Sequence record: MF547662.1
DNA: 64,000 nucleotides
Strand: one strand, 5' to 3'
Source: Clostridioides phage LIBA6276
Part shown: one piece after another, positions 12,545-35,861 of the stretch
How the letters are laid out: the number at the start of each line of letters is the position of its first letter
How positions within the stretch are numbered: the stretch's first letter is position 1
Notes under the pieces: generated by a model
Told to the model about the DNA's origin: nothing
Databases searched by the model: none
What the model saw: the letters and a program-made list of their open reading frames with translations, nothing else
Program-made: the position numbers and the translations under genes

Positions 12545-12557
12545 GGGAGAGATAGAT

Positions 12558-13445: not shown

Positions 13446-13668
13446 TATAAAAGATTTCCTATGCACATTTTCTTAAAATAAATAAAATTTAAAAATATAT
13501 TGTAAAAGATGAAAAAGTATGATACTATTTAAAAATAGAGAATTAATATGCTAATCATATTTTTAATGTATAAATTATTGTGTTGATTCTAACAACTAAA
13601 TAAAATGCAAAACAATAATTAAAAATATGAAAAATGATGGTTAAATTTTAGAAAAAGGAGATGTGCAT

Positions 13669-14498
13669 ATGGAAAATGAAAAAAGAAATGAAGTATTTTC
13701 AAATGAAGAGCTGGGGTAAATGTTAGGACTATAAGTTACGAAGATGGAAGTATAGGTATTAATGCTGAAGATACAGCGATTGGATTTGGTTGGTGCAAGA
13801 TAGAGAAAAAAGGAGAAAAAGAATATAAGTCAGTAAGATGGAAAAGAATGAATGAATTTTCTAAGGAGTTTGGTTTCGACCACTTGTGGTCGAAAGATGA
13901 TTACATATCAGAATCACTTTTCTATATGTTAGGTATGAAAGCTAAAAATGAAGCAGCAGTAAAATTTCAAAAATGGTTAGCAATAGATATAATTCCAACC
14001 ATTCGTAAGCATGGAGCTTATATGACTGATACAAAGATAGAAGAAATACTATCTAATCCAGATACAATTATTAAATTAGCAACTGACTTAAAAAAAGAGA
14101 GAGAAAAGAGAAAAGCTTTAGAAATAACAAATAATAAACAACAACAAATCATAGGTGAACTTAAACCAAAAGCAGACTATACATATTTGATACTTAGAAA
14201 TGAAGGATTAGTAACCATAACTCAAATAGCTAAAGATTATGGGATGAGTGGTAAAGCTATGAATAACAAACTGAATGAGTTAGGAATACAGTTCAAACAG
14301 AGTGGACAATGGTTATTGTATAGTGACCATCAGGCTAAAGGATATACCCATTCTGACACAATAGATATTGTAAGAGCTGATGGAACACATGATGTTAAGA
14401 TGAATACTAAATGGACTCAAAAAGGAAGATTAATGATATATAAGAAACTTAAATCAATAGGCATATTGCCTGTCATAGAACTTAGTGAAGTTTGCTAG
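13669..14498 (+). pseudogene. Bro-N / KilA-C (ORF6C) antirepressor-like paralog with apparent frameshift
   Basis: ATG 13669 gives MENEKRNEVFSNEELG then stop; the Bro-N continuation (VRTISYEDGSIGINAEDTAIGFGW...) is in another frame, running into ORF 13848-14498 which carries the KilA-C-type motif WLAIDIIPTIRKHGAYMTD; paralogs at 14654 and 23505 are intact. Confidence 0.45.
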
Positions 14499-14594
14499 GT
14501 CGTCTCAAAATACATGTTAAGGTTTAATAAAAAGAATTCAAAGATATAAGATAATATTGATAACTACATAATAAGAATATTGCTAGAGAGATTA

Positions 14595-14641
14595 GCATGC
14601 AGAATCAATATTATTCTAATCTCTCTAGTTAAAATAAATAG
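14595..14641. promoter_or_regulatory. 13-bp-arm inverted repeat CTAGAGAGATTAG..CTAATCTCTCTAG between Bro paralogs
   Basis: perfect palindrome arms read from sequence; shorter copy at 15494-15537. Confidence 0.4.
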
Positions 14642-14653
14642 GGAGATGTGTAT

Positions 14654-15439
14654 ATGGAAAATGAAATGAAAGTAGAAGTCTTTAAAAATGAGCAGTTTGG
14701 TGAAATTAGAGTGTTAGAAAAAGGTGGAGAACCTTGGTTTGTGGGAAAAGATGTAGCTGAAATGTTAGGATATTCCAATTCAAGAGATGCCTTAAAAAAG
14801 CATATCGACGAAGAGGATAAGGGGGTAGCGAAATGCGACACCCTTAGAGGAAGACAAATTTTAACAATTATTAATGAAAGTGGATTATATAGTTTAATCT
14901 TAAGTTCTAAGTTGGCAGAAGCTAAAAAATTCAAAAGATGGGTGACAAATGAAGTATTACCTACAATAAGGAGACATGGAGCATACCTGACAGATGATAA
15001 GATAGAGGAAATATTATCCAATCCAGATACAATTATAAAACTGGCTACAGAATTAAAAGAAAAGAGAGAAAAAATAAAACAATTAGAAACAGAAGTTGTC
15101 CATAAAGAAGATGTGATAATTGGATTAGTTGAAGATATAAGTTTAGCAGAGAAAAGACAAAGAATTAATCAGATAGTTAAATATAAGGTAGAGCCTAAGA
15201 ATTTCAGTAAGAGATGGAATTTGTTATATGACGAATTTGAGAAAAAATATCATCTTGATTTGAAAAGAAGAATTAATAATTGTGATATAAAACCTAAAAT
15301 TAGAAATAAGATAGATTATATAGATAGAGAAATGAGTATGATTCCTCAATTGTATGAGATAACATGTAAACTGTTTGAAAATGATGTGGAAGAATTAAAA
15401 AATGAATGGATTTCTGTTATAGAAGAAAAAGTTTGTTAG
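14654..15439 (+). CDS. phage antirepressor-like protein, Bro-N + KilA-C domains
   Basis: N-terminus EVFKNEQFGEIRVL..PWFVGKDVAEMLGY (Bro-N) and KRWVTNEVLPTIRRHGAYLTD (KilA-C/ORF6C) motifs; RBS AGGGAG. Confidence 0.6.
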   Translation: MENEMKVEVFKNEQFGEIRVLEKGGEPWFVGKDVAEMLGYSNSRDALKKHIDEEDKGVAKCDTLRGRQILTIINESGLYSLILSSKLAEAKKFKRWVTNEVLPTIRRHGAYLTDDKIEEILSNPDTIIKLATELKEKREKIKQLETEVVHKEDVIIGLVEDISLAEKRQRINQIVKYKVEPKNFSKRWNLLYDEFEKKYHLDLKRRINNCDIKPKIRNKIDYIDREMSMIPQLYEITCKLFENDVEELKNEWISVIEEKVC

Positions 15440-15567
15440 ATTTAGATGTGACAAATAGTCACTTATGAGATAGCATTGATAATTGAATAATAAGGCTAGA
15501 GAGATTAGTCTAATATCATTGTTATTCTAATCTCTTAAACTAAATAAAATGAAAAGGAGATTGGAAT

Positions 15568-16281
15568 ATGGGAAATTTAATGGTGTTTGAAGGTAAAGAA
15601 GTTGAAGTATTTGAGTTTGAAGGAAAGATTTTATTCAATCCTAAACATGTGGCAGAATGTTTAGAGATTTCAGATGTTAACAGCAGTATTAGAAAATTTA
15701 ATGATAATCAGGTAGTTAAACTGACTAATTCAGATATGCACAATATGCATATCCGAAAATTAAATAATGCAGGAGAGAAATTTCTTACAGAAAGTGGAGT
15801 ATACAAACTAATATTTAAGTCTAAAAAGAAAGAAGCAGAAAAATTTCAAGATTGGGTAATGGATGAGGTATTGCCATCTATTCGTAAAACAGGTACATAT
15901 AATATAAATCAAAATTATCTATTAGAAATGATACAAGGTGGTATTATGGGAGGTCTTAAATCTGTAGCACAATATGTAGATGACAGATTTAATGGAATTG
16001 AAGAAAGTAATAATCGAAAAATTAATGAGATAGAAAGTCTAATTGGACTTAGAGCCAAGAATGTAACCATGTTATCAAAATTATTAAAATTAAAATTGTC
16101 TTATATTAGAGGATACAATGTTAAGGCAAATGATTATGATTATAAGGCTACAACAACTAAAATATTCTTCAGATATAATGTGAATAAGTGGGAGGATATA
16201 CCAGCATCTAAATTTAATGAAGTTTATGACATAATTAATAATTTAGAAAACATTGATGATGTATATACATGGAAAAATTAG
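15568..16281 (+). CDS. Bro-N domain protein (antirepressor-like paralog)
   Basis: EVFEFEGKILFNPKHVAECLEI ... FQDWVMDEVLPSIRKTGTY motifs; RBS AAAGGAG. Confidence 0.5.
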   Translation: MGNLMVFEGKEVEVFEFEGKILFNPKHVAECLEISDVNSSIRKFNDNQVVKLTNSDMHNMHIRKLNNAGEKFLTESGVYKLIFKSKKKEAEKFQDWVMDEVLPSIRKTGTYNINQNYLLEMIQGGIMGGLKSVAQYVDDRFNGIEESNNRKINEIESLIGLRAKNVTMLSKLLKLKLSYIRGYNVKANDYDYKATTTKIFFRYNVNKWEDIPASKFNEVYDIINNLENIDDVYTWKN

Positions 16282-16330
16282 AAAATACCCACAGTTGGGG
16301 ATTTTGGAAATATGACATAAATATAATAAG

Positions 16331-16375
16331 ATTAGTAGCTCTTATAGATTTTTAAATAAAATAAGAGCTACTAAT
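16331..16375. terminator. 15-bp-arm hairpin ATTAGTAGCTCTTAT/ATAAGAGCTACTAAT
   Basis: perfect inverted repeat downstream of the Bro cluster. Confidence 0.45.
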
Positions 16376-16573
16376 CTTATTATATTTGTAGAATATAGAA
16401 TATTATATATAAATTTATAAAAAACAAATAAAATGATAAAAAACAAAAATAAATAACATATTATTACATATTTTTCCATTTTAATTATTTTGAAAAAGTG
16501 TTAGAATTTGTATAACAAATAATAATTCCGGAAAGACTTGTTTGAACTTTATAGCAATATTGGAGGTATTATT

Positions 16574-17278
16574 ATGTTTAAAATAATTATATGTGAAGAT
16601 GAAGAAATTCAAAGAAAAATAATGTTTGAATATATAGAGATTTTCTTTAAAAAAGATATTGAATATGAAATTATTTGTTTTAATAATGGAGAAGAATTAA
16701 TAAATAATTATATTAAAGCAGATATAATTTTTATGGACATAGGATTTAAAGGTATGAATGGCTTAGAAGCAGCAAAAGAAATAAGAAAAATAGATAAGGA
16801 TGTTGTTATAATATTTGCAACAGCTTTCGTATCGTATGCTACAGAAGGTTATGATGTTAGAGCTTTTAGCTATTTACTAAAACCTATAGCATATAATTCT
16901 TTTGAAAAAATAATGTCAAAATATTTCATTGAGAGGTCTGAAGAAAAGAAATTAATAGAATTTAAAATAAAAGATGAAACAAAAGTAATAAAATTAGAAG
17001 AGATAATATGTATAGAGAGTTTAGGTAAATATATAAAGATTCATACTAAGACTGAAAGTTTTTTTACTGCAATTAAAATCAAAAGGATTGAAGAGAAACT
17101 TTCTAGTAAAATATTCTTTCGATGTCATAAAAGTTTTTTAATAAATTTATTAGAAGTTAGAAATTATAACAGGAAAGAAGTTATTTTAGGTGATAGAAAG
17201 ATAAAAGCTACAATTTCTTATAGAAAATATAACAATTTTAAAAAGAGTCTCACTTCTTTTCTATGTGATAGATTTTGA
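16574..17278 (+). CDS. LytTR-family (AgrA-like) response regulator, orphan
   Basis: receiver-like N-terminus (ICEDEE..IIFMDIGF..G..G) plus C-terminal LytTR DNA-binding pattern (IEFK..IKLEEIICIES..KYIKIHTK..); RBS GGAGG; no kinase gene adjacent. Confidence 0.7.
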   Translation: MFKIIICEDEEIQRKIMFEYIEIFFKKDIEYEIICFNNGEELINNYIKADIIFMDIGFKGMNGLEAAKEIRKIDKDVVIIFATAFVSYATEGYDVRAFSYLLKPIAYNSFEKIMSKYFIERSEEKKLIEFKIKDETKVIKLEEIICIESLGKYIKIHTKTESFFTAIKIKRIEEKLSSKIFFRCHKSFLINLLEVRNYNRKEVILGDRKIKATISYRKYNNFKKSLTSFLCDRF

Positions 17279-17513
17279 ATAAAATAAATTATTTATAATT
17301 ATAAAATGAATAAAATTATTCTTGAAATTGCGTTTATACCGTTTTCCTATGCGTTCATTCCTTTTCACTTGATTTTCTACTGAAAAGAAATTATTATATA
17401 ATTAAAAGATACGTATCCTATTTAAAAGAGAAACTTATCAAAAATAAATTATTAAAGATAAGTTTCGAGATTATTTAGTATTTTTAAGTACATTTTATAG
17501 GGGGATGACGTAT

Positions 17514-17873
17514 ATGGAAAATTTTAAAAAAGATTTTGTGAAAAGTATGGGTATAATTAAATCATCTGAAATATTTCAAGGAAATATATTAGAGAAAAAT
17601 GAGCAAAGACTTGAGATGATTGAATATACGAAGCGAGATATTAATTTACTGACTAAAATTAAACATCTTTTTGAAAATATAAATGAATGTAATTTACAAG
17701 ATGCACAATACATAATAGAAAATGAATTGTTTTATGAAAGAGTTTCAATTCATACAATAAATAAATATATAAATAAATTTGGTGATATAAATGATTTTAA
17801 ATATGCATATAGATTGAAAGCAAAAAACGGGTTTAGGAGGACTATGGATTATTTAGTTAGAAAAAAGCATTAA
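17514..17873 (+). CDS. hypothetical protein
   Basis: ATG 17514 after AGGGGGATG RBS; 119 aa. Confidence 0.3.
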   Translation: MENFKKDFVKSMGIIKSSEIFQGNILEKNEQRLEMIEYTKRDINLLTKIKHLFENINECNLQDAQYIIENELFYERVSIHTINKYINKFGDINDFKYAYRLKAKNGFRRTMDYLVRKKH

Positions 17874-17934
17874 GATAATTAAATTTGTATATATTAGAGG
17901 CAATCTAAATTGATTGTCTTTTTTTTATTAAATA

Positions 17935-17982
17935 ATTTATGTTGCAGTTATTTAAATGATGACAGAGATATGACAAGGATAA
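17935..17982 (+). repeat. conserved 48-bp element, copy 1 (ATTTATGTTG-C/T-AGTTATTT..AATGATGACA-N5-ATGACAAG-G/T-ATAA)
   Basis: three copies (17935, 18514, core only at 22748); contains tandem 11-bp direct repeat ATGACAnnnnT/ATGACAAGnAT. Confidence 0.6.
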
Positions 17983-18025
17983 TTATAAGCATAAATATTT
18001 TGTTTTACATTAAGGAGGTGTGAAT

Positions 18026-18313
18026 ATGGAGTTAATATTTAAATTTAAGGATGTTCATGAATGTGTAGATTTTACTAAGGAGTTTAATCGTATTTATGCA
18101 AATAAAGAAAACTTCAAAAATAGATTGTTATTCAATAAAGTCAATATTCCAAAACATTTAATATATAATTATGATGATGATATTTGGACTGGAGATATAA
18201 TTAAAATGGCTAATCAGGCAAAGAAAAATGATTATAGCTTCTTTATGTTTAACAATATAATTTATTTTATAGATGATGAATGTATAAGTTATAAGATAGG
18301 TTTTAGAGATTAA
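18026..18313 (+). CDS. hypothetical protein
   Basis: ATG 18026 after AAGGAGGTG, 95 aa, ~45 bp downstream of repeat copy 1. Confidence 0.35.
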   Translation: MELIFKFKDVHECVDFTKEFNRIYANKENFKNRLLFNKVNIPKHLIYNYDDDIWTGDIIKMANQAKKNDYSFFMFNNIIYFIDDECISYKIGFRD

Positions 18314-18513
18314 ATTGTAAAATTTATAAGACGTTTATTATTATATTAATATAGATAAGGCGAGTGGCCATAGTACACCTTTAAGGTGTGGAGATAGAAT
18401 AAACCTTTTATTATTATAAGATAATAGAAGGTTTATTCTATTGTAATATAAATATCAAGATGTATTAATAAATATTAAAGATAATCAATTTAGATTGTTT
18501 TTTAAATTGAATC

Positions 18514-18561
18514 ATTTATGTTGTAGTTATTTCAATGATGACATGTGTATGACAAGTATAA
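18514..18561 (+). repeat. conserved 48-bp element, copy 2
   Basis: ATTTATGTTGTAGTTATTTCAATGATGACATGTGTATGACAAGTATAA. Confidence 0.6.
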
Positions 18562-18680
18562 GATACTTGGAAATATTGAAGGACATATAATACTAGATAT
18601 TATTAAAAGTAATAAATAGTCGTTGCTATTGGCGACTTTGAGAAGTATAATTTTCTTTTATTAATTATGGAGGTGAAAAT

Positions 18681-18839
18681 ATGAGTCAACATAAAATAAA
18701 ACCAATTCAGGCAACACCTGAATTATCAGGTAAAGACGCTGAATTATTTATAAGGCAAGTATTCAGTAAACCAAGTCAAAAGGAAATAGAAAGAAATGAA
18801 AGACTTTTAAACATTATAACCTCGTGTAAGACTCTTTAA
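18681..18839 (+). CDS. small ORF (52 aa), below ORF-track cutoff
   Basis: ATG with GGAGGTG RBS 7 nt upstream; downstream of repeat copy 2. Confidence 0.3.
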   Translation: MSQHKIKPIQATPELSGKDAELFIRQVFSKPSQKEIERNERLLNIITSCKTL

Positions 18840-19149
18840 GGCTTTGCAAAAATTATCACTTGTGTTTATGCCTTGATTACTTAGAATCGAACATAAGAGG
18901 TTAATTTTTATGACTGAAAGTATTAGAATTCCAACAAGTGTTCCTGAGAGGAACATTTTGTTTGGTGTTTAGCTACTATAAGAGCTTATTTTAATTTTGA
19001 GTGTGATGGGATTGAGGAGCTATTACTTGAGAGTAGATGATTTACTGGAATGGTTTATCATGTGAATTAAATTCCGTAGCTTCTAACTAGCCTTAAGTTT
19101 AAGGGTTACCTATTTATAAAAAATGACAGATAATGAGATTTAATATGTA

Positions 19150-19235
19150 GTCAAAGATGTAGTAGAAAAAATAGGATATAAAGATGTATCTGACACCTTG
19201 AAAAACATATTGATGAAAAAGTTAAAAATATTAAG
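19150..19235 (+). pseudogene. degenerate Bro-N gene remnant
   Basis: translates VVEKIGYKDVSDTLKNIL.., cf. VAEMLGYSNSRDALKKHI in intact paralogs; surrounding frames are broken; followed by terminator 19232-19258. Confidence 0.35.
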
Positions 19236-19471
19236 GCAGCTTATATAGCTGTCTTTTTTGTATAGAATAAAAAAGTTTATTATAACAGATAGTTATTATT
19301 TTATTAGTGTGTTACCAAGAATAAATTCCTTTTATCTAATATTTATTACAAATAATATATATTTTTATCTAATGAATGATTTTATATTTTAGTGTAAATT
19401 GGTATATTTTACCATTTACACTTGATATAATAAAAAATATAAACTATTTAAATAGAATTAGGGGGAATTGT

Positions 19472-22400
19472 ATGGAAAAGTATCTTTTTAATCAAAAACT
19501 ATTAAAAGAAAAATATAATATGGAAATAGACCTAGACTTATATGACTATAAACAAAGACGATTAATTTTAGAAAAATGGAGAGATATAATTGATAATAAA
19601 TCTATTGATAAATTAAATGAAATTCAACTTAAGGAAATATTTGTATCGGATATTTTAAACAAAGTTCTTAGGTATAAAAGTCTTACGGACAATATAATGG
19701 ATTATAATATAAAACCAGAAGAAAAAACTAAGATTGATGGAACAAGAGCTGATATTGTACTAGGCTATTTTTCTAATGAAGAAAGTGACTATAGAGTAGC
19801 AATAGAATTAAAAAAACCAACAACTAATTTAGATGCAAAACAACTAAGAAAAAACAATCATAATACACCAGTAGAACAAGGGTTTTCTTACTTGCCTAAA
19901 TATGGAAGAAATTGCACATGGCTTATTGTCTCTAACTTCAAGGAAATTAGATTGTATAATGCTAATGATGCTACAGAGTATGAATTTTTTTCTATTAAAG
20001 ATATATATGAAAAAGATGATGTATTTAAAAAATTTTTATATCTTTTGTCATCTAAATCTTTAATGACCAAACATGGAAAATCTAGGGTTGAAGTACTTTG
20101 GGAAGAGAATATAAAGCAAGAGGAAGCCATAGAAAAAGGTTTTTATGACCTATATAAAAATACTAGATTAAATTTATTTAATGATATACTTTTAAATAAT
20201 AAAGATATTTTGGATGTAAAAACTTGTTTAACAAAGACACAAAAAATATTAGATAGAGTTATATTTGTTTGTTTTGCAGAACATAAAGGATTAATACCAG
20301 AGAATATCTTTGAAACATGTATTCAAGTAGGGAAAAAAAGTGTATCTAGGTTTGGAGTCTGGGAACAAGTAAAGGGTCTGTTTGAATCTATAGATTTAGG
20401 TAATCAGGAAAAGGGCATAAATCAATTTAATGGAGGTTTATTTGCAGAAGATTATATTTTGAATAATCTAAAGATACCAAATAAATGTTTCGAGAATTTA
20501 TACAAGTTATCTTTATATGATTTTAACAGTGATTTAAATGAAAATATATTAGGGCATATATTTGAAAAATCTATATCTGACTTAGAAGAACTAAAACTAG
20601 AAATAAATCAAGTTAATATTAAGAAAAAAGATAGTAAGAGAAACAAAGATGGGATATTTTATACTCCCAAATACATAACGAAACATATTGTTAATAACAC
20701 CATAAGAAGATATTTAGATGAGAAGAAAAAAGAATTAGGCGAAGATAAACTTCCAGAACTAAAAGAAGAAGATTATGAAACAGTTGTGGTTGGTAGGAAT
20801 ATACAGCATAAGCGTGTACAAGTTGTAGAATATAAAACTGATAAAATTCAAAAATATATAAACTTTTGGAAAAATTATAGAGACGTTGTAAAAAATATAA
20901 AAATTTTAGACCCAGCTTGTGGAAGTGGAGCTTTTTTGAATGAGGCTTTTTCTATGTTAAAAAAAGAAGCTGAATCAGTAAACGAAATACTTCGTGATTT
21001 AACCGATGGTGAGATATCATTTTTTGACTTAGATGCTAATATATTAAAAAATAATTTATATGGAGTTGATTTGAATGAAGAATCTGTGGAAATAACTAAA
21101 TTGTCTTTATGGCTTAAAACAGCTAACAAGTATAGTTTATTAACTAGCTTAGATAATAATATAAAATGTGGAAATTCTATTATTGATAACAAAGAGGTTG
21201 ATTGTGCTAAAGCTTTTGATTGGAATGTTGAATTTGAAGATGTAATGATGTCAGGAGGGTTTGATATTATTATTGGAAATCCTCCATATGTTTCAACTAA
21301 AATGATTCCAGAAAAGCACAGAGAATATTATTGGAAAAAATATAAAGATTTACTAATTAGTGAAATGGATTTATATGAATTATTTTTATATGAGTTTTGC
21401 GAAAATAAATTAAAGCAAGATGGATTTTTGGGATTTATAACACCTAATACGTATTTCACAAATAAAAGCTTTGAAAATTTAAGAAAATATTTACTTAAAA
21501 ATGTATGTGTTGATACTATTTTAGACTTTCCATATAGATTTTTTCCTTTTGAGGATGTAAACAAGGAAACCGCTATAATTATAATTAATAAAAAATTGCC
21601 GAATATTAAAAATAATATAAATCTTATAAGTATAAATAAAGAAAATATGAAAAAGATTAAGATTTTCAATAGTAATACATACAACTCTGAAAATAAAATT
21701 ACTATAAAAAGTATTATAAATGATTTGGATAATAAAATTGTGATACAAAGCAACCCAATAATATTAAAAATGCTCAAATGTAAGCATAAATTAGGGGATT
21801 ATTTAAATTTACATAAAGGTTGGATGAGTGTCCCTAATAAAACAATTTGTGATGGAATTATATATGATAAGAAAATATTAAGTAGTAATGATATAAAAGA
21901 TAATAACCAATTAAATGGAATTTTAAATAAATGTTTGGAAGGTAAGGATATACATAGATACTATATTGATAAAGTAGATAAATTTGTAAATATTGAAAAC
22001 ATGGATGACAAAACTATGAGGTGGCACAAATCACCTAAGATAATAACACAAAGAATAGTTGGTCAAAATCAAAATAAGATAATTGCAACAGTAGATATTG
22101 AAGGTACTATAATATTCCCTAGTGGAAATATCATAAATTTAATTAAAGAAGATAATTTGGAAGATATATATTTTTATATAGGAGTTATAAATTCTAGTTT
22201 AATAAATTACTTTTATAATAAATTTTATGGAGAATCAAATACCAACTTGACAGCAGATGCAGTAAAAAATATACCAATACCAAATTTAAAAAATGTTGAT
22301 AAATCAATTATTATAAATAATAGTAAAATACTAATAAATAAATATGGTAAATTATACTTATACACTAATAAATTTTTGAAAAATGTATTTAAGATATTGA

Positions 22401-22699
22401 GCATAGATAATAATCCATCTAATAAATTATATAATTTTTATTTATTAGATTTTGATGAATTTTACAATGAACTTAGCAAAAAAAAGAAGCTTTATTTTAA
22501 GAATATTGATGAGTTAGAGGAATATTTTAATAAGTACAAAGATGCTATTAATAGAATCATATACGATATAAATGTATGCGAAAATACAATCAATACTTTT
22601 GTATATGATTTGTATGGTATAATTGAGCTAGAAAGTAAATCTATAGAAGATATATGTAAGACAACAAAAGACACTGTGGTTACAAGTTTAGCTTATTAA
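19472..22699 (+). CDS. Type IIG (MmeI-like) restriction-modification fusion enzyme: N-terminal PD-(D/E)xK nuclease + N6-adenine methyltransferase + target-recognition region
   Basis: DPACGSGAFL (SAM motif I), NPPY (motif IV, amino-MTase) and N-terminal D..IELK nuclease-like motif; 1075 aa from ATG 19472 (RBS AGGGGG); the six-frame ORF starts earlier at 19376. Confidence 0.65.
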   Translation: MEKYLFNQKLLKEKYNMEIDLDLYDYKQRRLILEKWRDIIDNKSIDKLNEIQLKEIFVSDILNKVLRYKSLTDNIMDYNIKPEEKTKIDGTRADIVLGYFSNEESDYRVAIELKKPTTNLDAKQLRKNNHNTPVEQGFSYLPKYGRNCTWLIVSNFKEIRLYNANDATEYEFFSIKDIYEKDDVFKKFLYLLSSKSLMTKHGKSRVEVLWEENIKQEEAIEKGFYDLYKNTRLNLFNDILLNNKDILDVKTCLTKTQKILDRVIFVCFAEHKGLIPENIFETCIQVGKKSVSRFGVWEQVKGLFESIDLGNQEKGINQFNGGLFAEDYILNNLKIPNKCFENLYKLSLYDFNSDLNENILGHIFEKSISDLEELKLEINQVNIKKKDSKRNKDGIFYTPKYITKHIVNNTIRRYLDEKKKELGEDKLPELKEEDYETVVVGRNIQHKRVQVVEYKTDKIQKYINFWKNYRDVVKNIKILDPACGSGAFLNEAFSMLKKEAESVNEILRDLTDGEISFFDLDANILKNNLYGVDLNEESVEITKLSLWLKTANKYSLLTSLDNNIKCGNSIIDNKEVDCAKAFDWNVEFEDVMMSGGFDIIIGNPPYVSTKMIPEKHREYYWKKYKDLLISEMDLYELFLYEFCENKLKQDGFLGFITPNTYFTNKSFENLRKYLLKNVCVDTILDFPYRFFPFEDVNKETAIIIINKKLPNIKNNINLISINKENMKKIKIFNSNTYNSENKITIKSIINDLDNKIVIQSNPIILKMLKCKHKLGDYLNLHKGWMSVPNKTICDGIIYDKKILSSNDIKDNNQLNGILNKCLEGKDIHRYYIDKVDKFVNIENMDDKTMRWHKSPKIITQRIVGQNQNKIIATVDIEGTIIFPSGNIINLIKEDNLEDIYFYIGVINSSLINYFYNKFYGESNTNLTADAVKNIPIPNLKNVDKSIIINNSKILINKYGKLYLYTNKFLKNVFKILSIDNNPSNKLYNFYLLDFDEFYNELSKKKKLYFKNIDELEEYFNKYKDAINRIIYDINVCENTINTFVYDLYGIIELESKSIEDICKTTKDTVVTSLAY

Positions 22700-22747
22700 T
22701 GAACAATTAGAAGGTCTACTTAAAGTAGGCTTTTTTTGTTATAATTC

Positions 22748-22775
22748 AATGATGACAGAGGTATGACAAGTATAA
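22748..22775 (+). repeat. conserved element, copy 3 (core only)
   Basis: AATGATGACAGAGGTATGACAAGTATAA between convergent RM and XRE genes. Confidence 0.55.
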
Positions 22776-22794
22776 TTTAAAAAAGAGGTGTATA

Positions 22795-23244
22795 TTAATT
22801 ATCCTCTTTTAGTCGTTCATATGCATTATCTATCATTCTCTCTATAGCTTTTCTATCCATTTCATCTAGTTGCATATATTTTTTAAGAACTTCTTTGACT
22901 TCATTATTGTAATCAGTATTTTCTAAGAATTTATTCATATCTTCTAAAGATTTAATGTCTTTTTTCCCATCAAGTATATCATAGATGGAATTATCTTCAC
23001 ATACGATTGATGGCATACCAGGTATATTTGCACTGACTGAATAGTTGGTTTTTGTATGACCTAAAAGATAATCTGTAGTGACATTAAAGTATTCAGCTAG
23101 TTTAACTATAGACTCTGCTGGTGGAGTTCTTTGGTCGTTTTCATACATACCTATAGTGCTTTGTGATACATTTAATATTTCAGCTAATTCATGTTGCTTT
23201 AATCCAAACTTAATTCTAAGTTTTTTTAATCTTTCTCCAAACAT
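22795..23244 (-). CDS. XRE-family HTH transcriptional regulator (repressor-like)
   Basis: LKKLRIKFGLKQHELAEILNVSQSTIGMYENDQRTP HTH_3 pattern; RBS GGAGGTG; divergent from Bro gene at 23505. Confidence 0.7.
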   Translation of the reverse strand: MFGERLKKLRIKFGLKQHELAEILNVSQSTIGMYENDQRTPPAESIVKLAEYFNVTTDYLLGHTKTNYSVSANIPGMPSIVCEDNSIYDILDGKKDIKSLEDMNKFLENTDYNNEVKEVLKKYMQLDEMDRKAIERMIDNAYERLKEDN

Positions 23245-23504
23245 TTTTCACCTCCAAGATATCTTTATAATTATTATACCACATAAAGTAATAAAATATT
23301 ATACTTGACATTACATTATGTGGAGTGTATTATAAAAATATAAATTACTTTAAGTGATAAAATTACTTTTAGTAATTAAAAAGAAGCCTTACAAACTTTG
23401 GACGGCGAGTAAGACTTCTTAAATAGCTGATATAATTATCAACTTGAATAGAATGATTATATCAGCTTCTTATAAAAAATACAACTTATAAGGAGGGATT
23501 AATT

Positions 23505-24548
23505 ATGGAGATAATTAATAGAGAAAATGAAAAAAGAATAATAAGCTTTAACAATGAATTATTTGGAGAAATAAGAACAATTAGAATTGAAAATGAACCC
23601 TATTTTGTCGCAACAGATATTGCAAAAGCTCTTGGGTATAAGGACACAACAAATGCAATTAAACAACATTGTAGGTGGGTGGTGAAACACCACATACCTC
23701 ACCCACAAAGTAAAACTAAAACTTTGGAAGTGAATATAATACCAGAAGGTGATATGTATAGATTAATTATAAATAGCGAATTACCAAGTGCTGAAAAATT
23801 TGAGCGTTGGGTATTTGATGAAGTTCTTCCATCAATAAGAGAACATGGAGCTTATATGACTAATGAAGCATTAGAGAAGGCAATCAATGACCCAGATTGG
23901 ACTATAAAATTACTTACAGAACTAAAGAAAGAGAGAGCTACTAAAGAAAAGTTAAAAGTAGAGCAAGAGAAAAATAAACCTAAACTTGAACTAGCTAATG
24001 CTATAGAAAGTTCATCAAGCTCAATACTAATTGCTCAACTATCTAAGATATTAAATCAGAATGGAGTAGATATAGGGCAGAATAGATTGTTTGAGTGGAT
24101 GAGAAATAATGAATATCTAATTAGGAAGAAAAGAGCTGACCATAATACTCCAACTCAAAAGTCAATGGATTTGAAAGTATTAGAGGTTTCTGAGAGTACT
24201 GGGATAGATAAAGATGGAAATACTGTAATAAGACAAACTCCTGTTGTAACTGGAAAAGGACAAATATATTTTGTAAATAAGATATTGAAAGAGAATAACA
24301 AAGTACTTAAGAGATTCATGATAAATAATGATTACATAAGAGGAGTTATGGTTGAGATAGGTAAAACATATGCTATATATGACCATGAGTACTATGGATT
24401 TATTGGTATATTAAAGAGTGTAAGAAATGAGAAAATAAGAGTAGAAAAAATAGGAGATGTTTCTAGCAGTAGGGATATTCCAATCTGTATGATAGATTAC
24501 ATAGAAGAAGCTAGTAAAGAAGATATTAATAAATATTTGAGTAAATGA
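23505..24548 (+). CDS. antirepressor-like protein, Bro-N + KilA-C domains
   Basis: ELFGEIRTIRIENEPYFVATDIAKALGY and ERWVFDEVLPSIREHGAYMT motifs. Confidence 0.6.
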   Translation: MEIINRENEKRIISFNNELFGEIRTIRIENEPYFVATDIAKALGYKDTTNAIKQHCRWVVKHHIPHPQSKTKTLEVNIIPEGDMYRLIINSELPSAEKFERWVFDEVLPSIREHGAYMTNEALEKAINDPDWTIKLLTELKKERATKEKLKVEQEKNKPKLELANAIESSSSSILIAQLSKILNQNGVDIGQNRLFEWMRNNEYLIRKKRADHNTPTQKSMDLKVLEVSESTGIDKDGNTVIRQTPVVTGKGQIYFVNKILKENNKVLKRFMINNDYIRGVMVEIGKTYAIYDHEYYGFIGILKSVRNEKIRVEKIGDVSSSRDIPICMIDYIEEASKEDINKYLSK

Positions 24549-24648
24549 TTTTGTGGAAATAGGAGTTTTGGCTTCTATTTCCTTTTGTAGTATAAATTTT
24601 CCTTTAGAATTGATACAATTAATGTATCAGAATAAAGGAGATAATGTT

Positions 24649-25809
24649 ATGTTAATAAGTGAATATATTAAAGATAATAGATGTGGGAAAAAAAGTAAAT
24701 TATATTTCAAAAAGCTTGAAGAAATAAAACAAGAATTTATTAATAGAGATTTAGAATATTTGTTGTTAACAACTTGGGACGAAGAAATCTCATGTATGAT
24801 GAAAACTGGAAGAGATTTGGATAAGTTAAAATATAGGGATGGATTTAAGGAAATAAACAATTTATTTGATAGCATATCAGAAGAAATAAGAGATGAATAT
24901 AAAGAAAAAGATACATATACAATGTTTTTTAGCAGTTGCTCTAAAGAAAAATATTATATAGCTTGTGAGTTAGCCAATAGTGCTTATAAACATATAATAC
25001 TTCCTAATATATTTGAAGATGACAAAAGTGTAAATCACAAAGTTGTGTTTAAAAAAGAACAAAAAAAAGAAATAGCATTAATGTTGAAACTTATTTCTAG
25101 CTATATGCAACATGGGTTTTCAGGTTATAAAATTTATGATACAGATATAAAATTTATAGAAAATCTATGTTTGTTTGAGGGTAAAAAGGTTTGTTATCCA
25201 AAACCAAATAATTTAACACATTTTTTAGGAGATATTTCTAGGTCTGATAATGACCCAATAGAAATACTTCATGCTAGAAATGTAATAAACAAAATAATGG
25301 AAAAAGGGTATTTTGATAATGAATTTGAACTAGTGTATTTTTTAAGAGGGAAAATAATGACTCCAATGCAAAATAAGTATGAGAAAATTGATACATCATC
25401 ATTAGAAAAAATAAATTATTTAGAAGAAAAAGCGCTTATCCAGAAAAAAATGATTTTAAATGATGAAATGGCTTATAAATGGAAAAGTGAGATTAATATG
25501 TTTAAAGTAATTTGTAAAAAGTTTAAAGATGCAACACATCAATATAGACCTGAGTGGTTAAATGGTCAAACTTTAGATGTATTTGTTCCCTCTATTAATT
25601 TGGCTTTTGAGTATCAAGGACAACAACATTTTAAGAGTGTAGATTTTTTTGGAGGGGAAGAAACTCTTGAAAAAAATAAATTAAGAGATAAAAAAAAGAA
25701 AAGGCTATGTGATGAAAATAATGTTAAATTAATTTATTGGAATTATGATGAACCAATAACTACTATAGTATTAAAGAAAAAATTAAAAGAAAATAATGTC
25801 GAATTGTAA
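24649..25809 (+). CDS. hypothetical protein with C-terminal DUF559/Vsr-like PD-(D/E)xK nuclease-fold domain
   Basis: C-terminus LDVFVPSINLAFEYQGQQHF...DKKKKRLCDENNVKLIYW fits the D..(E)..G..H...D..R...L...G..V.R pattern of DUF559; start at second ATG of GATGTTATG after AAGGAG (shared leader). Confidence 0.4.
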   Translation: MLISEYIKDNRCGKKSKLYFKKLEEIKQEFINRDLEYLLLTTWDEEISCMMKTGRDLDKLKYRDGFKEINNLFDSISEEIRDEYKEKDTYTMFFSSCSKEKYYIACELANSAYKHIILPNIFEDDKSVNHKVVFKKEQKKEIALMLKLISSYMQHGFSGYKIYDTDIKFIENLCLFEGKKVCYPKPNNLTHFLGDISRSDNDPIEILHARNVINKIMEKGYFDNEFELVYFLRGKIMTPMQNKYEKIDTSSLEKINYLEEKALIQKKMILNDEMAYKWKSEINMFKVICKKFKDATHQYRPEWLNGQTLDVFVPSINLAFEYQGQQHFKSVDFFGGEETLEKNKLRDKKKKRLCDENNVKLIYWNYDEPITTIVLKKKLKENNVEL

Positions 25810-25870
25810 TAATTTTCCTAATAGTATATTCTTGATATAATTGAAGTATCAGGATAGGGGGAGATGTTAT
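25786..25870 (+). repeat. promoter/leader cassette copy A (direct repeat of 26726-26812; partial copy 24595-24650)
   Basis: 37 nt identical then ~85% identity; contains TGATATAAT extended -10 and G-rich RBS followed by GATGTTATG start context. Confidence 0.6.
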
Positions 25871-26579
25871 GGAAGAATATTTAGGTCATTTTATTTTAAT
25901 AGGGCTAGGTGTAGGATATATTATTGTTTATTGCTTTATAAGAAACGTAATGGATAATGCTAAAGAAAAAGAAGCTAGATTAGAAAGAATAGCAGAAAGA
26001 AATAGAGAAAAAACAAAGGTGGAAAAGGCTATACAAAAAAATATTTCAATGGCTAAATGTCAAGCTTTTGGTAATTCAAACAGTGACAGTGTGATATTAA
26101 GCAATAATGGTAAAATATCTATCATTCATGCTGGATTTAAGACAGCAGTTAAAAAAAATATAGAAGATTTAGTAAGCATTAAGTTTAGCATGCAAGTTAG
26201 TGAAAAAAATCAGATGAGGATAATATCTATAGTTCCTACATATGATAAATATACTTTTGTAGAAAAAATATATTTAACTTTGATATTTGAACTTAATACT
26301 TATGAAGTATTTTATATTCCAGAACATAAAAATATAAATAATGCAGATATTCAAGAAAAAATAAAAGAAATGGAAAGATTTAAATTAGTTGTAGAGAATG
26401 AAGCAGCTAAATTTAAAAATGCTAAAATAGAAAGCAATAATGATATAAAAAAAGATGATGATGATATATCAAAAATTTCAAATTCATTAAAAGAATTACA
26501 CAGTTTGAAAGACCAAGAGATATTAACAGAAGAAGAATTTAATGAAAAGAAAAAAGTATTATTAGAGAAAATTAAATAA
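25869..26579 (+). CDS. membrane-anchored protein with C-terminal SHOCT-like domain
   Basis: N-terminal hydrophobic helix (HFILIGLGVGYIIVYCFI) and C-terminal LKELHSLKDQEILTEEEFNEKKKVLL (SHOCT-like). Confidence 0.4.
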   Translation: MEEYLGHFILIGLGVGYIIVYCFIRNVMDNAKEKEARLERIAERNREKTKVEKAIQKNISMAKCQAFGNSNSDSVILSNNGKISIIHAGFKTAVKKNIEDLVSIKFSMQVSEKNQMRIISIVPTYDKYTFVEKIYLTLIFELNTYEVFYIPEHKNINNADIQEKIKEMERFKLVVENEAAKFKNAKIESNNDIKKDDDDISKISNSLKELHSLKDQEILTEEEFNEKKKVLLEKIK

Positions 26580-26637
26580 AAATATTAAGACAGTATACTA
26601 ACTGTCTTTTTTTATGCTTTAAAAAGGAGTTGGTTAA

Positions 26638-26748
26638 ATGGCAGAAGAATTTAAGATTAAGACCAGTATAGAACTTGATGATAAAAAAGCTAGACAACAA
26701 TTAGCATCATTACAAGCGTCAGCAAAAGAAAATAATGTCGAATTGTAA
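26638..26748 (+). pseudogene. tape measure protein N-terminal remnant (36 aa) fused to repeat cassette
   Basis: MAEEFKIKTSIELDDKKARQQL.. is ~80% nt-identical to the intact TMP start at 27854 (MVEEFKIKTSIELDDKEAREKL..), then runs into the repeat encoding KENNVEL*; preceded by the same terminator+RBS arrangement as the real TMP. Confidence 0.55.
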
Positions 26749-26812
26749 TAATTTTCCTAATCGTATATTCTTGATATAATTAATGTATCAGAATATAAGG
26801 GGGATGTTATGT
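26726..26812 (+). repeat. promoter/leader cassette copy B
   Basis: see copy A. Confidence 0.6.
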
Positions 26813-27792
26813 TTAAGAAGATATTATTGATTGGGATTGTGAGTATATTAGGATTTGGAGTTGTAGGATGTAGTGATAGTAATAAAAATGAAGTAGTAAA
26901 AAAAGAAAAAAAAGAGGTATCATTAGAAGGGCTTACTCATATTATGAAAAACTATGATAAAATGACAGATTATTCTATAGATAAATTTTCTAATGAAGAG
27001 GAAAATGATTTTAATAAAGAGAATTGCATAATAGATGACAATGATGAAAAAACAAAAGAGGCATTAGAAATTACAGATAAAACATCTAAAGATATGAATG
27101 AATTGATTGCTTTATCTAAAGAATACAAAAAGAATGATTTAAATGACACAAAAAAGAAATTTGAAGATAGAATGGATGAATTCAAATCAGATATTAATTC
27201 TTATATGGTAGATATAACTCCATTTGAAACACCTGAAAGTTTGTTAAAAGAACTTGAAGAAAAGGAAAATGAGAAGATTATTTGGAAGGAGAGAAAATTT
27301 TTTATCATTGATAAAAAATTAGATAGTAAATTTATGGACTCGGAAAACAGGCCAATAAATAGTTGGTTTAAAAGTAATTATGACTTAAGAAAATTTCAGA
27401 TAGATTTTCAAAATACAGTATTAACAGGAAATGAACAGTTGAAAAAAAACTTTGATAACATAAAAATGAATATTGATGATAATAACTCTCATGAATTATT
27501 AAAGAATCAGACTAAATTAAAAAAAATTATAAAATATTGGGGTTCAGAATTATATGCTATGAATTCATATATTAGAAGTAATGAAATTACTTTGAGTGGG
27601 AATATGAATATACTTCTTTCTAAATTTGAAGAAGAAATTAGGTGTTATAGGACTATAGAATCTTCATTCTCACATGATTTAAAATCGACAAAACAGAATT
27701 TAGATAATGATAGTACAATGATGCCTTCTTATATAGAAAGTGCAGAAAAATATTATAATGACATAAAAGAAATGGAAACTTATTGGAATTAA
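26809..27792 (+). CDS. putative lipoprotein (secreted)
   Basis: signal peptide MFKKILLIGIVSILGFGVVGC with lipobox-like Cys; immediately upstream of TMP. Confidence 0.5.
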   Translation: MFKKILLIGIVSILGFGVVGCSDSNKNEVVKKEKKEVSLEGLTHIMKNYDKMTDYSIDKFSNEEENDFNKENCIIDDNDEKTKEALEITDKTSKDMNELIALSKEYKKNDLNDTKKKFEDRMDEFKSDINSYMVDITPFETPESLLKELEEKENEKIIWKERKFFIIDKKLDSKFMDSENRPINSWFKSNYDLRKFQIDFQNTVLTGNEQLKKNFDNIKMNIDDNNSHELLKNQTKLKKIIKYWGSELYAMNSYIRSNEITLSGNMNILLSKFEEEIRCYRTIESSFSHDLKSTKQNLDNDSTMMPSYIESAEKYYNDIKEMETYWN

Positions 27793-27853
27793 ATAAAAAC
27801 ATTAAGGCAGTCAATTGACTGTCTTTTTTTATACAAAAAAAGGAGTTGAGTAG

Positions 27854-29332
27854 ATGGTTGAAGAGTTTAAAATTAAAACCAGTATTGAACTTGATGACAA
27901 AGAAGCTAGAGAAAAATTAGAAAAGTTAAAAAATAGTGGTCAAGATAAGCCTATTAAATTAAATTTGAAAATAGGTGAATTAGATAAGTTATCACAGCAA
28001 GCAGAACAACTAAAAGGCATATTTAATAAAGCTTTCAAGATTGATAGTACTGCTTTAAGTAATTTAAAGCAAATTGAATCTACTATGAAAGAAATAAATA
28101 AACTAAGTAGAAGAAGTCAAGATAGTTTACTTGGTGGTGGCTCTGGAAATACAGGAAATATAAATAATGAACAACAAGATTTAATAAGACAATATAAAGA
28201 AATTTCAAATGTTGTGTCTAGGCTTCAAAATCAGATGAGGACAGGTTTAGGGGATAGTTCAATTGAAAGAACAACAGAGCAAATTGAAAGATTAAAAAGA
28301 CAATTGGATTCAGTGTATGCACAAATGAATTCATCATCTCAAGCTAGAATGGATATGTTTGATGCTTCAAGAGCAACAAGAGATTTAGCTGATATGAATA
28401 GAAGTCTTTCAAGAATAGAAGATATGGCAACACAAGCATCTGCTAGGCTTAATGGATTAGGCGATAATATAGATACAGATAAAGTAAATAGACTTAGGAA
28501 TGAGTTACAAGAATTAAAACAGATAGCTAGTAGAAATATAGATTTAAATCTTGATGTAGGTAATATAGTTAATAGAATACAAGAGATAAATCAAGAAGTT
28601 AGAAATTTAGAAAGAGTTGATAGCTTAAGGTCTAATTTCAGCAGAATAGAAGATTCTATTAGACAGGCATTTGGGAATGAGAGAGTTGAAGCTTTTAGAC
28701 GTTCTTTAGAGCAACTTCAAGGTTCGGCAGGAAATCTAAATGGTGATTTTAACAATATATTTGATAGACTAACAAGAGAAATGAGAGACGCGAGACAAGA
28801 AGCTGAAAGATTAAATAATACAGTTTCAAAGGGTGGAGGATTTTTTAATGATTTTTATTCATCTATAGCATCATATTCGATTGGAGATATGTTAGGAGAT
28901 GCTTTAACTGACGGAATTAGGTCTATGAAAGATGTTATATTAGAGCTTGATAGCTCTATGACTGACCTTAAAAAGGTTGCAGAACCAACAGATATTGATA
29001 GCACATCTGAGTTAGATAAGATAAGGGAAAAAGCAATACAAACAGCTAAAGATGTAGGAATGAGTGCATCACAAGTTCAAGAATCAATAGCATCTTCTTT
29101 ACAAGCAGGAATTGGAGGTATGCAAGAAAGTATTGCTGCTGCAAGACAATCAATGATACTTGCCAATGTAGGGGACATGGATGTTGAAGGTGCTTCTTCA
29201 GCAGTAAACACAATAATAAATGGATTTAGAATTGAACCTTTAAAAGAAATGCAAGTGCAGGTTGGAAATACTACAAAGAAAACAACAGAATTAACTGCTG
29301 CAATGGATATGCTAAATTGTTTGGCGTGTTAG
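27854..29332 (+). CDS. tail tape measure protein, N-terminal segment
   Basis: 492 aa, coiled-coil rich; N-terminus paralogous to remnant at 26638; tail-module position. Confidence 0.55.
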   Translation: MVEEFKIKTSIELDDKEAREKLEKLKNSGQDKPIKLNLKIGELDKLSQQAEQLKGIFNKAFKIDSTALSNLKQIESTMKEINKLSRRSQDSLLGGGSGNTGNINNEQQDLIRQYKEISNVVSRLQNQMRTGLGDSSIERTTEQIERLKRQLDSVYAQMNSSSQARMDMFDASRATRDLADMNRSLSRIEDMATQASARLNGLGDNIDTDKVNRLRNELQELKQIASRNIDLNLDVGNIVNRIQEINQEVRNLERVDSLRSNFSRIEDSIRQAFGNERVEAFRRSLEQLQGSAGNLNGDFNNIFDRLTREMRDARQEAERLNNTVSKGGGFFNDFYSSIASYSIGDMLGDALTDGIRSMKDVILELDSSMTDLKKVAEPTDIDSTSELDKIREKAIQTAKDVGMSASQVQESIASSLQAGIGGMQESIAAARQSMILANVGDMDVEGASSAVNTIINGFRIEPLKEMQVQVGNTTKKTTELTAAMDMLNCLAC

Positions 29333-35723: not shown

Positions 35724-35861
35724 TATATGTAATTGGTCTTTATTTATTATTCACTCATTTACTTACGTTTTATAATTTATAGTCAGATTTTTTTTGAAAA
35801 TATATATTTATCTAATAAAAAATATTGTTTATAAAAAACGTATTTATGATATAATAGTAAT

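Follow-up and report, generated by a model that had tools for sequence, protein, structure and literature searches.

Why should more than 14 kb of non-structural genes stand inside the tail module of a Clostridioides difficile phage, directly ahead of the gene for its tape measure protein (TMP)? The question is posed by the window analysed here, a whole stretch of 64,000 nucleotides (nt) in which plus-strand open reading frames (ORFs) run unbroken from the terminase gene to gene 16 (end 13445), the next structural ORF beginning at 27854. The interval between them (13446..27853; 14,408 bp), hereafter the island, carries about 15 non-structural genes. A sequence-only reading had drawn the same borders, which the present gene calls bear out, and had seen in the island an insertion of independently expressed extra genes (morons) that broke the conserved order of major-tail, chaperone, and TMP genes. 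From 13000 to 28500, the window matches positions 13000-28500 of Clostridioides phage LIBA2945 (MF547663.1; a 132,508-bp circular record) at 100%, and it is thus the 1-64000 interval of that genome, whose structural genes resemble those of SPbeta (terminase 40% identical to YonF, TMP matching YomI, gene 14 matching YomH). Elements of the phiCD211 type have been reported from about 5% of 2,584 C. difficile genomes (PMC6127314). The phage is a member of the phiCD211/phiCD5763 family of ~130-kb C. difficile phage-plasmids (SPbeta-like siphoviruses), and the LIBA-2945 phage genome was described by Ramírez-Vargas et al. (2018, PMC5786514) as identical to phiCD5763, a big plasmid-like siphovirus akin to phiCD211/phiCDIF1296T. 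The answer advanced here, in which we place good though not complete confidence, is that the island represents, in this phage, a hypervariable accessory region which the family carries just ahead of the TMP gene, at a site both fixed and permissive.

That regulators, antirepressors, and a DNA methylase interrupt the structural cluster of this phage, in numbers that vary between subgroups (5-7 of these genes in the phiCD5763-like phages, 1-4 in those resembling phiCD2955), was already reported by the same authors (PMC5786514). What they called a methylase is classed here as a type IIG restriction-modification (RM) enzyme, and the accessible part of their paper gives no boundaries, hotspot interpretation, linker or scar analysis, or comparison with SPbeta. 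The basic observation is thus already known, and the present analysis is a refinement rather than a discovery; it adds the exact boundaries, hotspot behaviour across the family (with cargo of defensive and selfish kinds), the repeated linkers and a scar, a parallel in the phages SPbeta and Sundance, and the recognition of a single intron-split TMP gene.

The comparison covered 17 distinct relatives, taken from a phage database (five), IMG/VR, and PLSDB, and something occupies the site between gene 16 and the TMP gene in every one of them (17/17). The left junction was aligned with the five phage-database relatives and ten IMG/VR loci, a gene presence/absence matrix was drawn up for 13 relatives, and breakpoints were collected from 14. 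In all relatives, a gene 16 homologue stands on the left of the site and the TMP gene on its right. Located by tblastn with gene 16 and TMP exon 1 against the related genomes of the phage database, the gap measures 4.4 kb in phiCD211 (= phiCDIF1296T), 9.9 kb in AR1086-1, 11.6 kb in ES-S-0107-01, 14.0 kb in ES-S-0173-01, 14.4 kb in LIBA2945, and 17.2 kb in pCD1602_4; the IMG/VR and PLSDB relatives likewise have non-structural DNA between the gene 16 homologue and the TMP gene. Nucleotide homology at the left junction stops at 13444-13450, right after the stop codon of gene 16.

The position is constant and the content is not, differing in every distinct relative. At this site, pCD1602_4 carries an AAA_21 ATPase with a partner gene and DUF4379 proteins; ES-S-0173-01 a CWB2 surface protein, a helix-turn-helix (HTH) regulator with tetratricopeptide repeats (TPR), a DpnII/MboI-type restriction endonuclease (REase) with an AAA_22 protein, and WG-repeat proteins; ES-S-0107-01 ToxN (5688-6239 of L004, L numbers denoting compared loci); pCd18_2 IscB; and the FDAARGOS_1528 plasmid DUF3800. 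Defence-type genes occur in most islands (type IIG RM, ToxN, DpnII REase with AAA_22, AAA_21 ATPase), and they are matched or exceeded in frequency by regulators, Bro paralogs, nuclease-like genes, and surface proteins. The LIBA2945 island is itself a mosaic, with 19200-26736 being 99.7% identical to AR1086-1, 12500-17986 99% identical to IMG/VR locus L008, and 13652-14500 85% identical to pCD1602_4. The part most often kept is the XRE/Ant/(nuclease-like)/SHOCT block beside the TMP gene, and the most variable is the interval from gene 16 to the XRE gene; L012 has a small segment and the RM gene only, and phiCD211 has XRE, a small ORF, Ant, and SHOCT only. According to the presence/absence matrix, no island gene is found in all the relatives whose island is fully covered, which makes the island genes accessory, as the sequence-only reading had proposed, and none of them gave a structural-family match in Pfam or PHROG profile searches. 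From the lack of any universal gene we infer that they would be dispensable for lytic growth.

The interruption extends beyond the C. difficile phages. In SPbeta, the genes at the yomO/yomN position are followed in the direction of transcription by yomM (integrase-like), yomL (on the opposite strand), yomK, yomJ ('immunity protein d'), and the TMP gene yomI, the yomM-yomJ stretch measuring ~4 kb, and in Brevibacillus phage Sundance, the integrase-like gp033 together with gp034 lies between gp032 and the TMP gene. Both regions hold the equivalent position, after small genes of the yomO/yomN or gp031/gp032 type and before the TMP gene, and their content is non-structural too, although it has no sequence homology to the island and the regions are far smaller (1.5-4 kb). 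With SPbeta and Sundance carrying such an interruption as well, the feature is a trait of the supergroup rather than a disruption peculiar to LIBA2945, and a gap in all relatives and in the outgroups places the interruption at or before the ancestor of the lineage. The sequence-only reading had proposed a comparison of synteny with related phages, taking a shared ancestral gene order as evidence against itself; that comparison, now run, finds the position conserved and the content not conserved. Its claim of an insertion that broke an otherwise intact arrangement in this phage has to be given up, since relatives and outgroups all carry non-structural DNA there. Its proposal of a recombination hotspot used for cargo is upheld by content that differs in every distinct relative, with other defence or selfish elements among it, and by breakpoints that cluster at linkers.

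Turnover at the site would proceed by recombination among related phage-plasmids at the linkers they share, namely a motif-A promoter, motif B, similar terminators, and the junction of terminator, ribosome-binding site (RBS), and TMP 5' end. Motif A (TTGATAYAATTRAWGTATCAGRATA), in which an extended -10 box of the form TGnTATAAT (TGATATAAT) is joined to a short leader, occurs on the plus strand at 24610..24634, 25832-25856, and 26771-26795, its copies ending ~13 nt before the start codons at 24649, 25869, and 26809; the three copies, against 0.01 expected, all lie in the island, with none elsewhere in the 64 kb. The promoter-like motif B (AATGATGACA-N4-TATGACAAG-N-ATAA; plus strand, 17955..17982, 18534-18561, and 22748-22775) also has three copies in the 64 kb, against 0 expected, all in the island, and precedes the genes at 18026 and 18681. 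A role for motif B as a LytTR binding site was considered and rejected, the 11-nt spacing of its repeats being a misfit to the ~21-nt periodicity of such sites. Of the 35 clusters of homology breakpoints, 22 are intergenic or at gene edges, in an island that consists of deep coding sequence to 74% (binomial P=4e-6; 14 relatives). The commonest joints are motif B (17986; 22721-22794), a terminator at 19200-19227, motif A (24651-24666), and a relic of the TMP start (26736), 5 loci breaking at 17986-17996 and 8 at 22721-22794. The pattern fits linker-mediated exchange.

In a recombination scar (26570..26795, plus strand), a duplicated TMP-start unit is fused to a duplicated unit from the 3' end of the nuclease-like gene. 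The first unit, composed of terminator, RBS, and first TMP codons (~150 nt; copy 26570-26748), is represented by direct repeats D2 and D8 (26570-26715 vs 27787-27931, 81-82% identity) and includes a relic ORF of 36 codons (26638-26748) with 86% amino acid identity to the TMP start of phiCD211 and AR1086-1. The second, composed of the 3' end of the nuclease-like gene and motif A (72 nt), is direct repeat D4 (25785-25856 vs 26724-26795, 94% identity). The duplicated units together flank the lipoprotein gene, and the scar is one left by unequal recombination between two phages that held different cassettes behind the same linkers.

The island of LIBA2945 is composed of a left-hand cargo bay (three additional Bro paralogs, one of them frameshifted, a LytTR regulator, small genes, and the type IIG RM enzyme), a right-hand semi-conserved core (XRE, a divergent promoter/operator, Bro-KilAC, an optional nuclease-like gene, and SHOCT) that resembles a repressor/antirepressor switch, and a lipoprotein cassette added between the SHOCT and TMP genes. 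Most of the genes are envisaged as morons, that is, self-contained units of promoter, gene, and terminator transcribed by the host RNA polymerase apart from the late structural operon. The presence of terminators of their own, proposed from the sequence at the outset, agrees with the count of 18 terminator-like hairpins in the island against 2.7 +/- 1.8 in shuffled sequence; such hairpins follow the genes ending at 17873, 18839, 22699, 24548, 26579, and 27792, among them terminators at 22709-22735 (after the RM gene), 24555-24582 (after Bro/KilAC), 26587-26608 (after SHOCT), and 27804-27829 (after the lipoprotein gene).

A number of observations count against this account and should be set beside it. 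Generic sigma-70 matches are not enriched (110 vs 128.7 in shuffles), the moron status of the island genes draws on sequence motifs only, and the base composition of the island is only slightly lower than that of its flanks (0.22-0.31 vs ~0.25-0.31). The strong terminator at 27804-27829, placed immediately ahead of the TMP RBS, is separated from the TMP start by 25 nt in which there is no promoter, so that late transcription would have to read through it or be anti-terminated; no YonO-sized ORF that might encode a YonO-type phage RNA polymerase is annotated at 84-132 kb of LIBA2945, where a LuxR/GerE-type protein upstream of the structural genes is the only such factor. Gene-edge breakpoints are equally to be expected from selection for functional joins, and do not by themselves show that recombination is targeted to the linkers. 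The XRE/Ant core is absent from L012, L015, and ES-S-0173-01, and the 'chaperone' label of genes 15 and 16, on the left flank, is positional only.

Of the competing explanations, the one that survives best, though we still consider it unlikely, is that the block is primarily the ancestral lysogeny-control (immunity) module of the phage, an essential piece of regulation inside the structural cluster and not cargo. The combination of an XRE gene, divergent promoter and operators, and a Bro-KilAC gene is typical of such switches. The XRE-family HTH regulator (22795..23244, minus strand; HTH_3 3.8e-18) is convergent with the RM gene and divergent from the Bro/KilAC gene (23505..24548, plus strand; ANT 3.6e-27, Bro-N 1.3e-23), which is the paralog, fourth in order, whose copy is conserved in the core. 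Upstream of the latter stands the best sigma-70-like promoter of the region (23305-23333, plus strand; TTGACA-17-TATTAT), and on its 3' side follow two tandem palindromes ATTACTNNNAGTRAT (23344-23358 and 23362-23376, plus strand), presumed to be operators controlling the Bro/KilAC gene; matches of this operator type number 4 in the window against 1.08 expected, two of them adjacent and between the XRE and Bro/KilAC genes. The layout, which counts in favour of the hypervariable-region account as well, is that of a switch, with divergent genes and repeated operator-like palindromes in the intergenic promoter region. Homologues of the XRE regulator (58-100% identity) are found in 8/13 relatives, in which the XRE/Bro-KilAC arrangement is conserved, yomJ of SPbeta ('immunity protein d') holds the same position, and the immunity label was used in the 2018 paper (PMC5786514). 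Set against this, XRE, Ant, and SHOCT are all absent from the complete islands of L012 and L015, and in ES-S-0173-01 the HTH-TPR regulator stands instead; missing from three relatives, the XRE/Ant core is not an obligatory immunity module. Other clusters of HTH regulators lie outside the island, at 113-114 kb and 120.7 kb of the genome, and the greater share of the 14 kb, with its genes for the RM enzyme, the LytTR regulator, the extra Bro proteins, and the lipoprotein, does not belong to the machinery of a switch.

The next explanation turns on the TMP gene, the right border of the site. ORF 27854-29332 corresponds to PhageMin_Tail positions 1-76 and ORF 29655-35723 to positions 100-201, and on the alignment evidence the former is exon 1 of the TMP gene and not a separate gene, the two 'TMP' ORFs being one intron-split gene. 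Exon 1 (27854..29313, plus strand; profile positions 1-76 at residues 391-467) is followed by a type A intron of 289 nt (29314..29602, plus strand), inside the PhageMin_Tail domain, and by exon 2 (29603..35723, plus strand), which gives a spliced TMP of 2526 amino acids. The segment 29309-29605 has 88-91% nt identity to relatives, yet the exon 1 protein is just 23-28% identical. The intron junctions (29313/29314 and 29602/29603) were fixed by an alignment of five copies and by the uninterrupted ES-S-0107-01 allele (phiCD211 site); the upstream exon closes with ...ATGCT, the intron reads AAATTG...TTTG, and the downstream exon opens with AAACTAT, the 5' exon ending in U and the intron in G. RNAalifold folded the type A intron with 82 consensus pairs, 20 with compensatory changes, and with a predicted P1 helix that places a U.G at the splice site, and splicing in silico restores the reading frame and a continuous PhageMin_Tail match (1-201/201, 92.5 bits). 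The junctions and the restored frame agree with a group I intron. Rfam RF00028, the model of the conserved group I catalytic core, gave no match to the type A intron, either in a gathering-threshold scan of the window or at E<=1 and E<=0.1 around 29100-29900, and the intron, missed by Rfam, was defined by comparative alignment instead; the type B' intron in the L012 TMP gene scores 103 bits on RF00028. Rfam searches of four relatives gave only a Fusobacteriales-1 RNA (in pCD1602_4) and did not recover the 'Intron_gpI' annotated in phiCD211.

Across the phage family, the TMP gene is host to small introns that lack ORFs and belong to three sequence families (A, B, and B'), 1-3 per genome, at no fewer than five different sites, all inside the PhageMin_Tail domain. 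Those of the relatives lie at 20581-20868 and 20892-21157 in L002, 7216-7483, 7727-8012, and 8169-8426 in L005, 18916-19204 in L006, and 17238-17526 and 17582-17872 in L012. The type A intron (88-91% identical) is found at three different codon positions in different phages, always after ...GCT, which suggests ectopic transposition, for example by reverse splicing. The gene is uneven in its affinities as well: its 5' two-thirds (27854-33700) has no nucleotide similarity to the phage-database relatives, to which exon 1 is 23-28% identical at the amino acid level, and exon 1 has 96-98% nt identity to the IMG/VR locus L012, while in the 3' third, from 33733 onward, identity to the phage-database relatives is 65-87%. 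With the 5' two-thirds divergent and the 3' third alike, the mosaic zone spans most of the TMP gene.

It could be argued that the TMP gene drives the hotspot, in that double-strand breaks made by homing-type nucleases or mobile introns in its 5' part would be repaired from co-infecting relatives, with long co-conversion tracts dragging the cassettes along. The three intron families at five or more sites of the PhageMin_Tail domain (1-3 per genome), the mosaic 5' two-thirds (exon 1 at 23-28% amino acid identity to most relatives and 98% to L012), and the recurrence of nuclease-like genes in the islands would all suit such a mechanism, and nuclease genes are said, in a published generalisation, to be located at exchange boundaries. 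However, the introns are ORF-less, the nuclease-like proteins have no known cleavage activity or target, the left cargo bay, which is the most variable part, lies 5-14 kb from the TMP gene, and ordinary mosaicism explains the data equally well. We therefore regard this mechanism as improbable, and lend as little credence to its wider form, in which the pre-TMP site would be a cassette-exchange locus kept across the SPbeta-like supergroup, its units of promoter, gene, and terminator being swapped by way of common linkers and the exchange actively stimulated by DNA breaks from mobile-intron or homing-nuclease activity in the TMP 5' part, the TMP gene being a recombination engine for the cargo bay.

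A single recent insertion of one 14-kb foreign island, specific to LIBA2945 and breaking the canonical order of major-tail, chaperone, and TMP genes, has very little left to commend it. Chaperone and TMP genes are adjacent in canonical siphophages, and none of the 13 relatives tested has the lipoprotein cassette of LIBA2945 (26809-27792), but every relative already has a gap at the site, the outgroups SPbeta and Sundance are interrupted too, the segments of the island differ in nearest relative and in identity (AR1086-1, pCD1602_4, L008), and the internal scar points to stepwise assembly. Least credible of all is the idea that the island codes for parts of an unusual tail, its genes being structural or assembly genes not recognised as such, an idea for which it may be said that many proteins of the phage family are unannotated and that the island lies inside the structural cluster, and against which stand the lack of a universal island gene, the regulatory, RM, or nuclease-like nature of the domains, and the minimal islands (phiCD211, 4.4 kb; L012, 5.3 kb), which share no gene at 50% coverage or above, save a partial 62-63% match to gene 22.

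With the hypervariable accessory region as the preferred account, the genes themselves may be considered in turn, all on the plus strand unless stated; they were called with Pfam, PADLOC, and PHROGs, together with NCBIfam, a PDB sequence search, and Rfam, and hairpin and promoter counts were set against shuffled sequence. The first is a Bro-N/KilAC antirepressor-type gene (13670..14498) with a frameshift near 13715, of which ORF 13848-14498 retains only the KilAC half (Pfam ANT E=1.4e-31; Bro-N remnant 19.5 bits, below cutoff); its intact homologues of 274-278 amino acids are found in pCD1602_4 and ES-S-0173-01, the alignment beginning at 13713. Two Bro-N proteins follow, at 14654..15439 (E=1.5e-29) and 15568..16281 (E=1.7e-18). 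Together with the core copy, they make up the four Bro-N/KilA-C paralogs of the sequence-only reading; the degenerate fifth that it had added comes down to no more than a trace of 25 codons (19129-19203; E=0.043), and the first of the four is the frameshifted gene. Next come an orphan response regulator with receiver and LytTR domains (16574..17278; LytTR 2.8e-19, Response_reg 5.8e-15), which is BtsR/LytR-like in NCBIfam with scores below the equivalog cutoffs, has no partner kinase gene in the island, and occurs in 5 distinct IMG/VR relatives but in none from the phage database; two small genes (17514-17873 and 18026-18313) that match only PHROG families of unknown function; and an ORF of 52 amino acids (18681..18839), which is shared more widely than any other small island gene, though pCD1602_4 and L012 lack it. 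Interference with host or co-resident prophage regulation might come from the orphan LytTR regulator and the additional Bro proteins, and the Bro/Ant proteins and regulators may engage in cross-talk with the repressors of the phage itself and of co-resident prophages. Interference of this kind was likewise suggested by the 2018 authors (PMC5786514).

The type IIG RM enzyme (19472..22699, with a long ORF from 19376) is the only PADLOC match within the window (REase_MTase_IIG, E=2.7e-100, 334.7 bits over residues 76-869). Pfam recognises Eco57I (3e-42, 145 bits) and MmeI_Mtase (1.9e-18, 67 bits) in it, with MmeI_N and MmeI_hel at 24 bits, just under the cutoffs, and its predicted domain order is the single-polypeptide type IIG architecture of N-terminal endonuclease, gamma-class N6-adenine methyltransferase, and C-terminal specificity region. 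Copies 98-100% identical are carried by AR1086-1 (split), ES-S-0107-01, L010, L012, and L015; the AR1086-1 copy (17550-20777 of L003) is 100% identical in protein but divided into ORFs of 54 and 1000 amino acids, and its N-terminal (nuclease) part is probably inactivated. In the lysogen, the enzyme may serve for protection and for stabilisation of the plasmid.

The nuclease-like (homing-endonuclease-like) protein at 24649..25809 matches PHROG 559, 9084, and 7140 (E 2e-12 to 1.5e-10), families annotated as HNH, homing, or intron-encoded endonucleases, and its C-terminal D...EYxGxxH module recurs in DUF4379 proteins of other islands (BLASTP E=1e-6 and 5e-6). There was no match to it in Pfam (to E<=10), NCBIfam, or the PDB sequence search, and its AlphaFold2 (AF2) single-sequence model, with a pLDDT of 33, was unusable, so the 'nuclease' label reflects the PHROG matches and the shared C-terminal motif. 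The two last genes encode a membrane-anchored SHOCT-domain protein (25869..26579; SHOCT 6.3e-7, with a single N-terminal transmembrane helix at residues ~4-28) and a lipoprotein (26809..27792; signal peptide and lipobox ...VVG/C21, Cys21), the latter with no homologue in any of the 13 relatives tested. Such envelope proteins may mediate exclusion. The idea of the lipoprotein and the divergent TMP allele as a linked exclusion/immunity pair was weakened by L012, which has the same TMP allele (98%) without the lipoprotein. For the LytTR, type IIG RM, convergent XRE, nuclease-like, SHOCT, and lipoprotein genes, then, the Pfam, PADLOC, PHROG, and signal-peptide evidence agrees with the initial calls. 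Among the cargo of the relatives, the pCD1602_4 island carries a Fusobacteriales-1 RNA (RF02920, 97 bits; L005 15793-15911, minus strand) of three tandem hairpin repeats, adjoining and upstream of an ORF of 176 amino acids without a Pfam match; the RNA motif might be a type III antitoxin-like repeat array.

The left flank of the site is formed by two conserved tail-module genes, 15 (12558-13007) and 16 (13008-13445), both on the plus strand and both at the 'chaperone position'. They share one frame with a single TAG (13005-13007) between them, gene 16 starting at the very next codon, a layout that phiCD211 repeats. The sequence-only reading was right to see conserved tail-module genes here; as for their being chaperones, neither has a family match, and no overlapping plus-strand ORF offers a -1 frameshift partner, so that the G/GT arrangement of overlapping ORFs with a programmed -1 frameshift adjoining the TMP gene is lacking. 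A fusion by stop-codon read-through, instead of the usual G/GT frameshift, is conceivable. Immediately upstream, at 11759-12544, lies a Dit-like gene (PF20195/PF20753, phrog_33), a homologue of SPbeta YomH and Sundance gp036; it stands upstream of the TMP gene here and its homologue downstream in SPbeta and Sundance, which indicates that the tail module has been rearranged in the big C. difficile phages. A tyrosine recombinase at 53512-54456 (Phage_integrase with a SAM-like N-domain) is 35% identical to Sundance gp033; counterparts of this YomM-like recombinase occupy the pre-TMP site in Sundance (gp033) and SPbeta (YomM, matched by gp033), whereas in LIBA2945 it lies downstream of the tail-fibre genes. 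Directly 3' of the TMP gene, a 1.8-kb stretch (35724-37582) has almost no coding potential and is conserved in relatives. It is built of two tandem units of ~510-530 nt, in each of which an extended -10-like box (TGATATAAT or TGGTATAAT) is accompanied by a terminator-like hairpin and by ATGATATAAATTTATATCAT, a perfect palindrome of 20 nt; a scan of 35600-37700 gave no Rfam match, E<=1 and E<=0.1 included, and the units may be small RNA genes or regulatory units.

Parallels to the site may be sought in several known systems. The moron concept, attributed to Hendrix and Juhala, reportedly concerns extra genes of lambdoid phages; the island resembles them in having extra genes with promoter-like and terminator-like signals between conserved late genes, present or absent among relatives, and differs in being an array of ~15 genes at one site rather than single genes and in its weak compositional contrast. 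Rousset et al. are said to have described, in 2022, defence-system hotspots of P2-like phages and P4-like satellites, and the likeness here is a fixed locus between conserved core genes with switching defence content (type IIG RM, ToxN, DpnII-type REase, AAA_21 ATPase pair); the present site differs in that regulatory genes (Bro/Ant, XRE, LytTR) and selfish ones (IscB, nuclease-like) make up a large share of what it holds, and in lying inside the tail module of a Gram-positive phage-plasmid. With P22 immI, the Gifsy phages, and P1 ant, the core shares Bro-N/KilAC and XRE domains, a divergent layout, and operator-like palindromes downstream of the ant promoter, the difference being the four paralogs found here. 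Both the morons and the switch role are, in the present case, read from sequence.

For annotation, a 'broken' tail module is to be taken as normal in SPbeta-like phages and as no sign of a defective prophage, and the two 'TMP' ORFs are to be treated as one intron-split gene. For C. difficile, the site is where the large phage-plasmids of clinical strains hold exchangeable defence and regulatory genes, among them RM, ToxN, IscB, antirepressors, and an orphan LytTR regulator, and this cargo may influence phage resistance, the induction of co-resident prophages, and the regulation of host genes.

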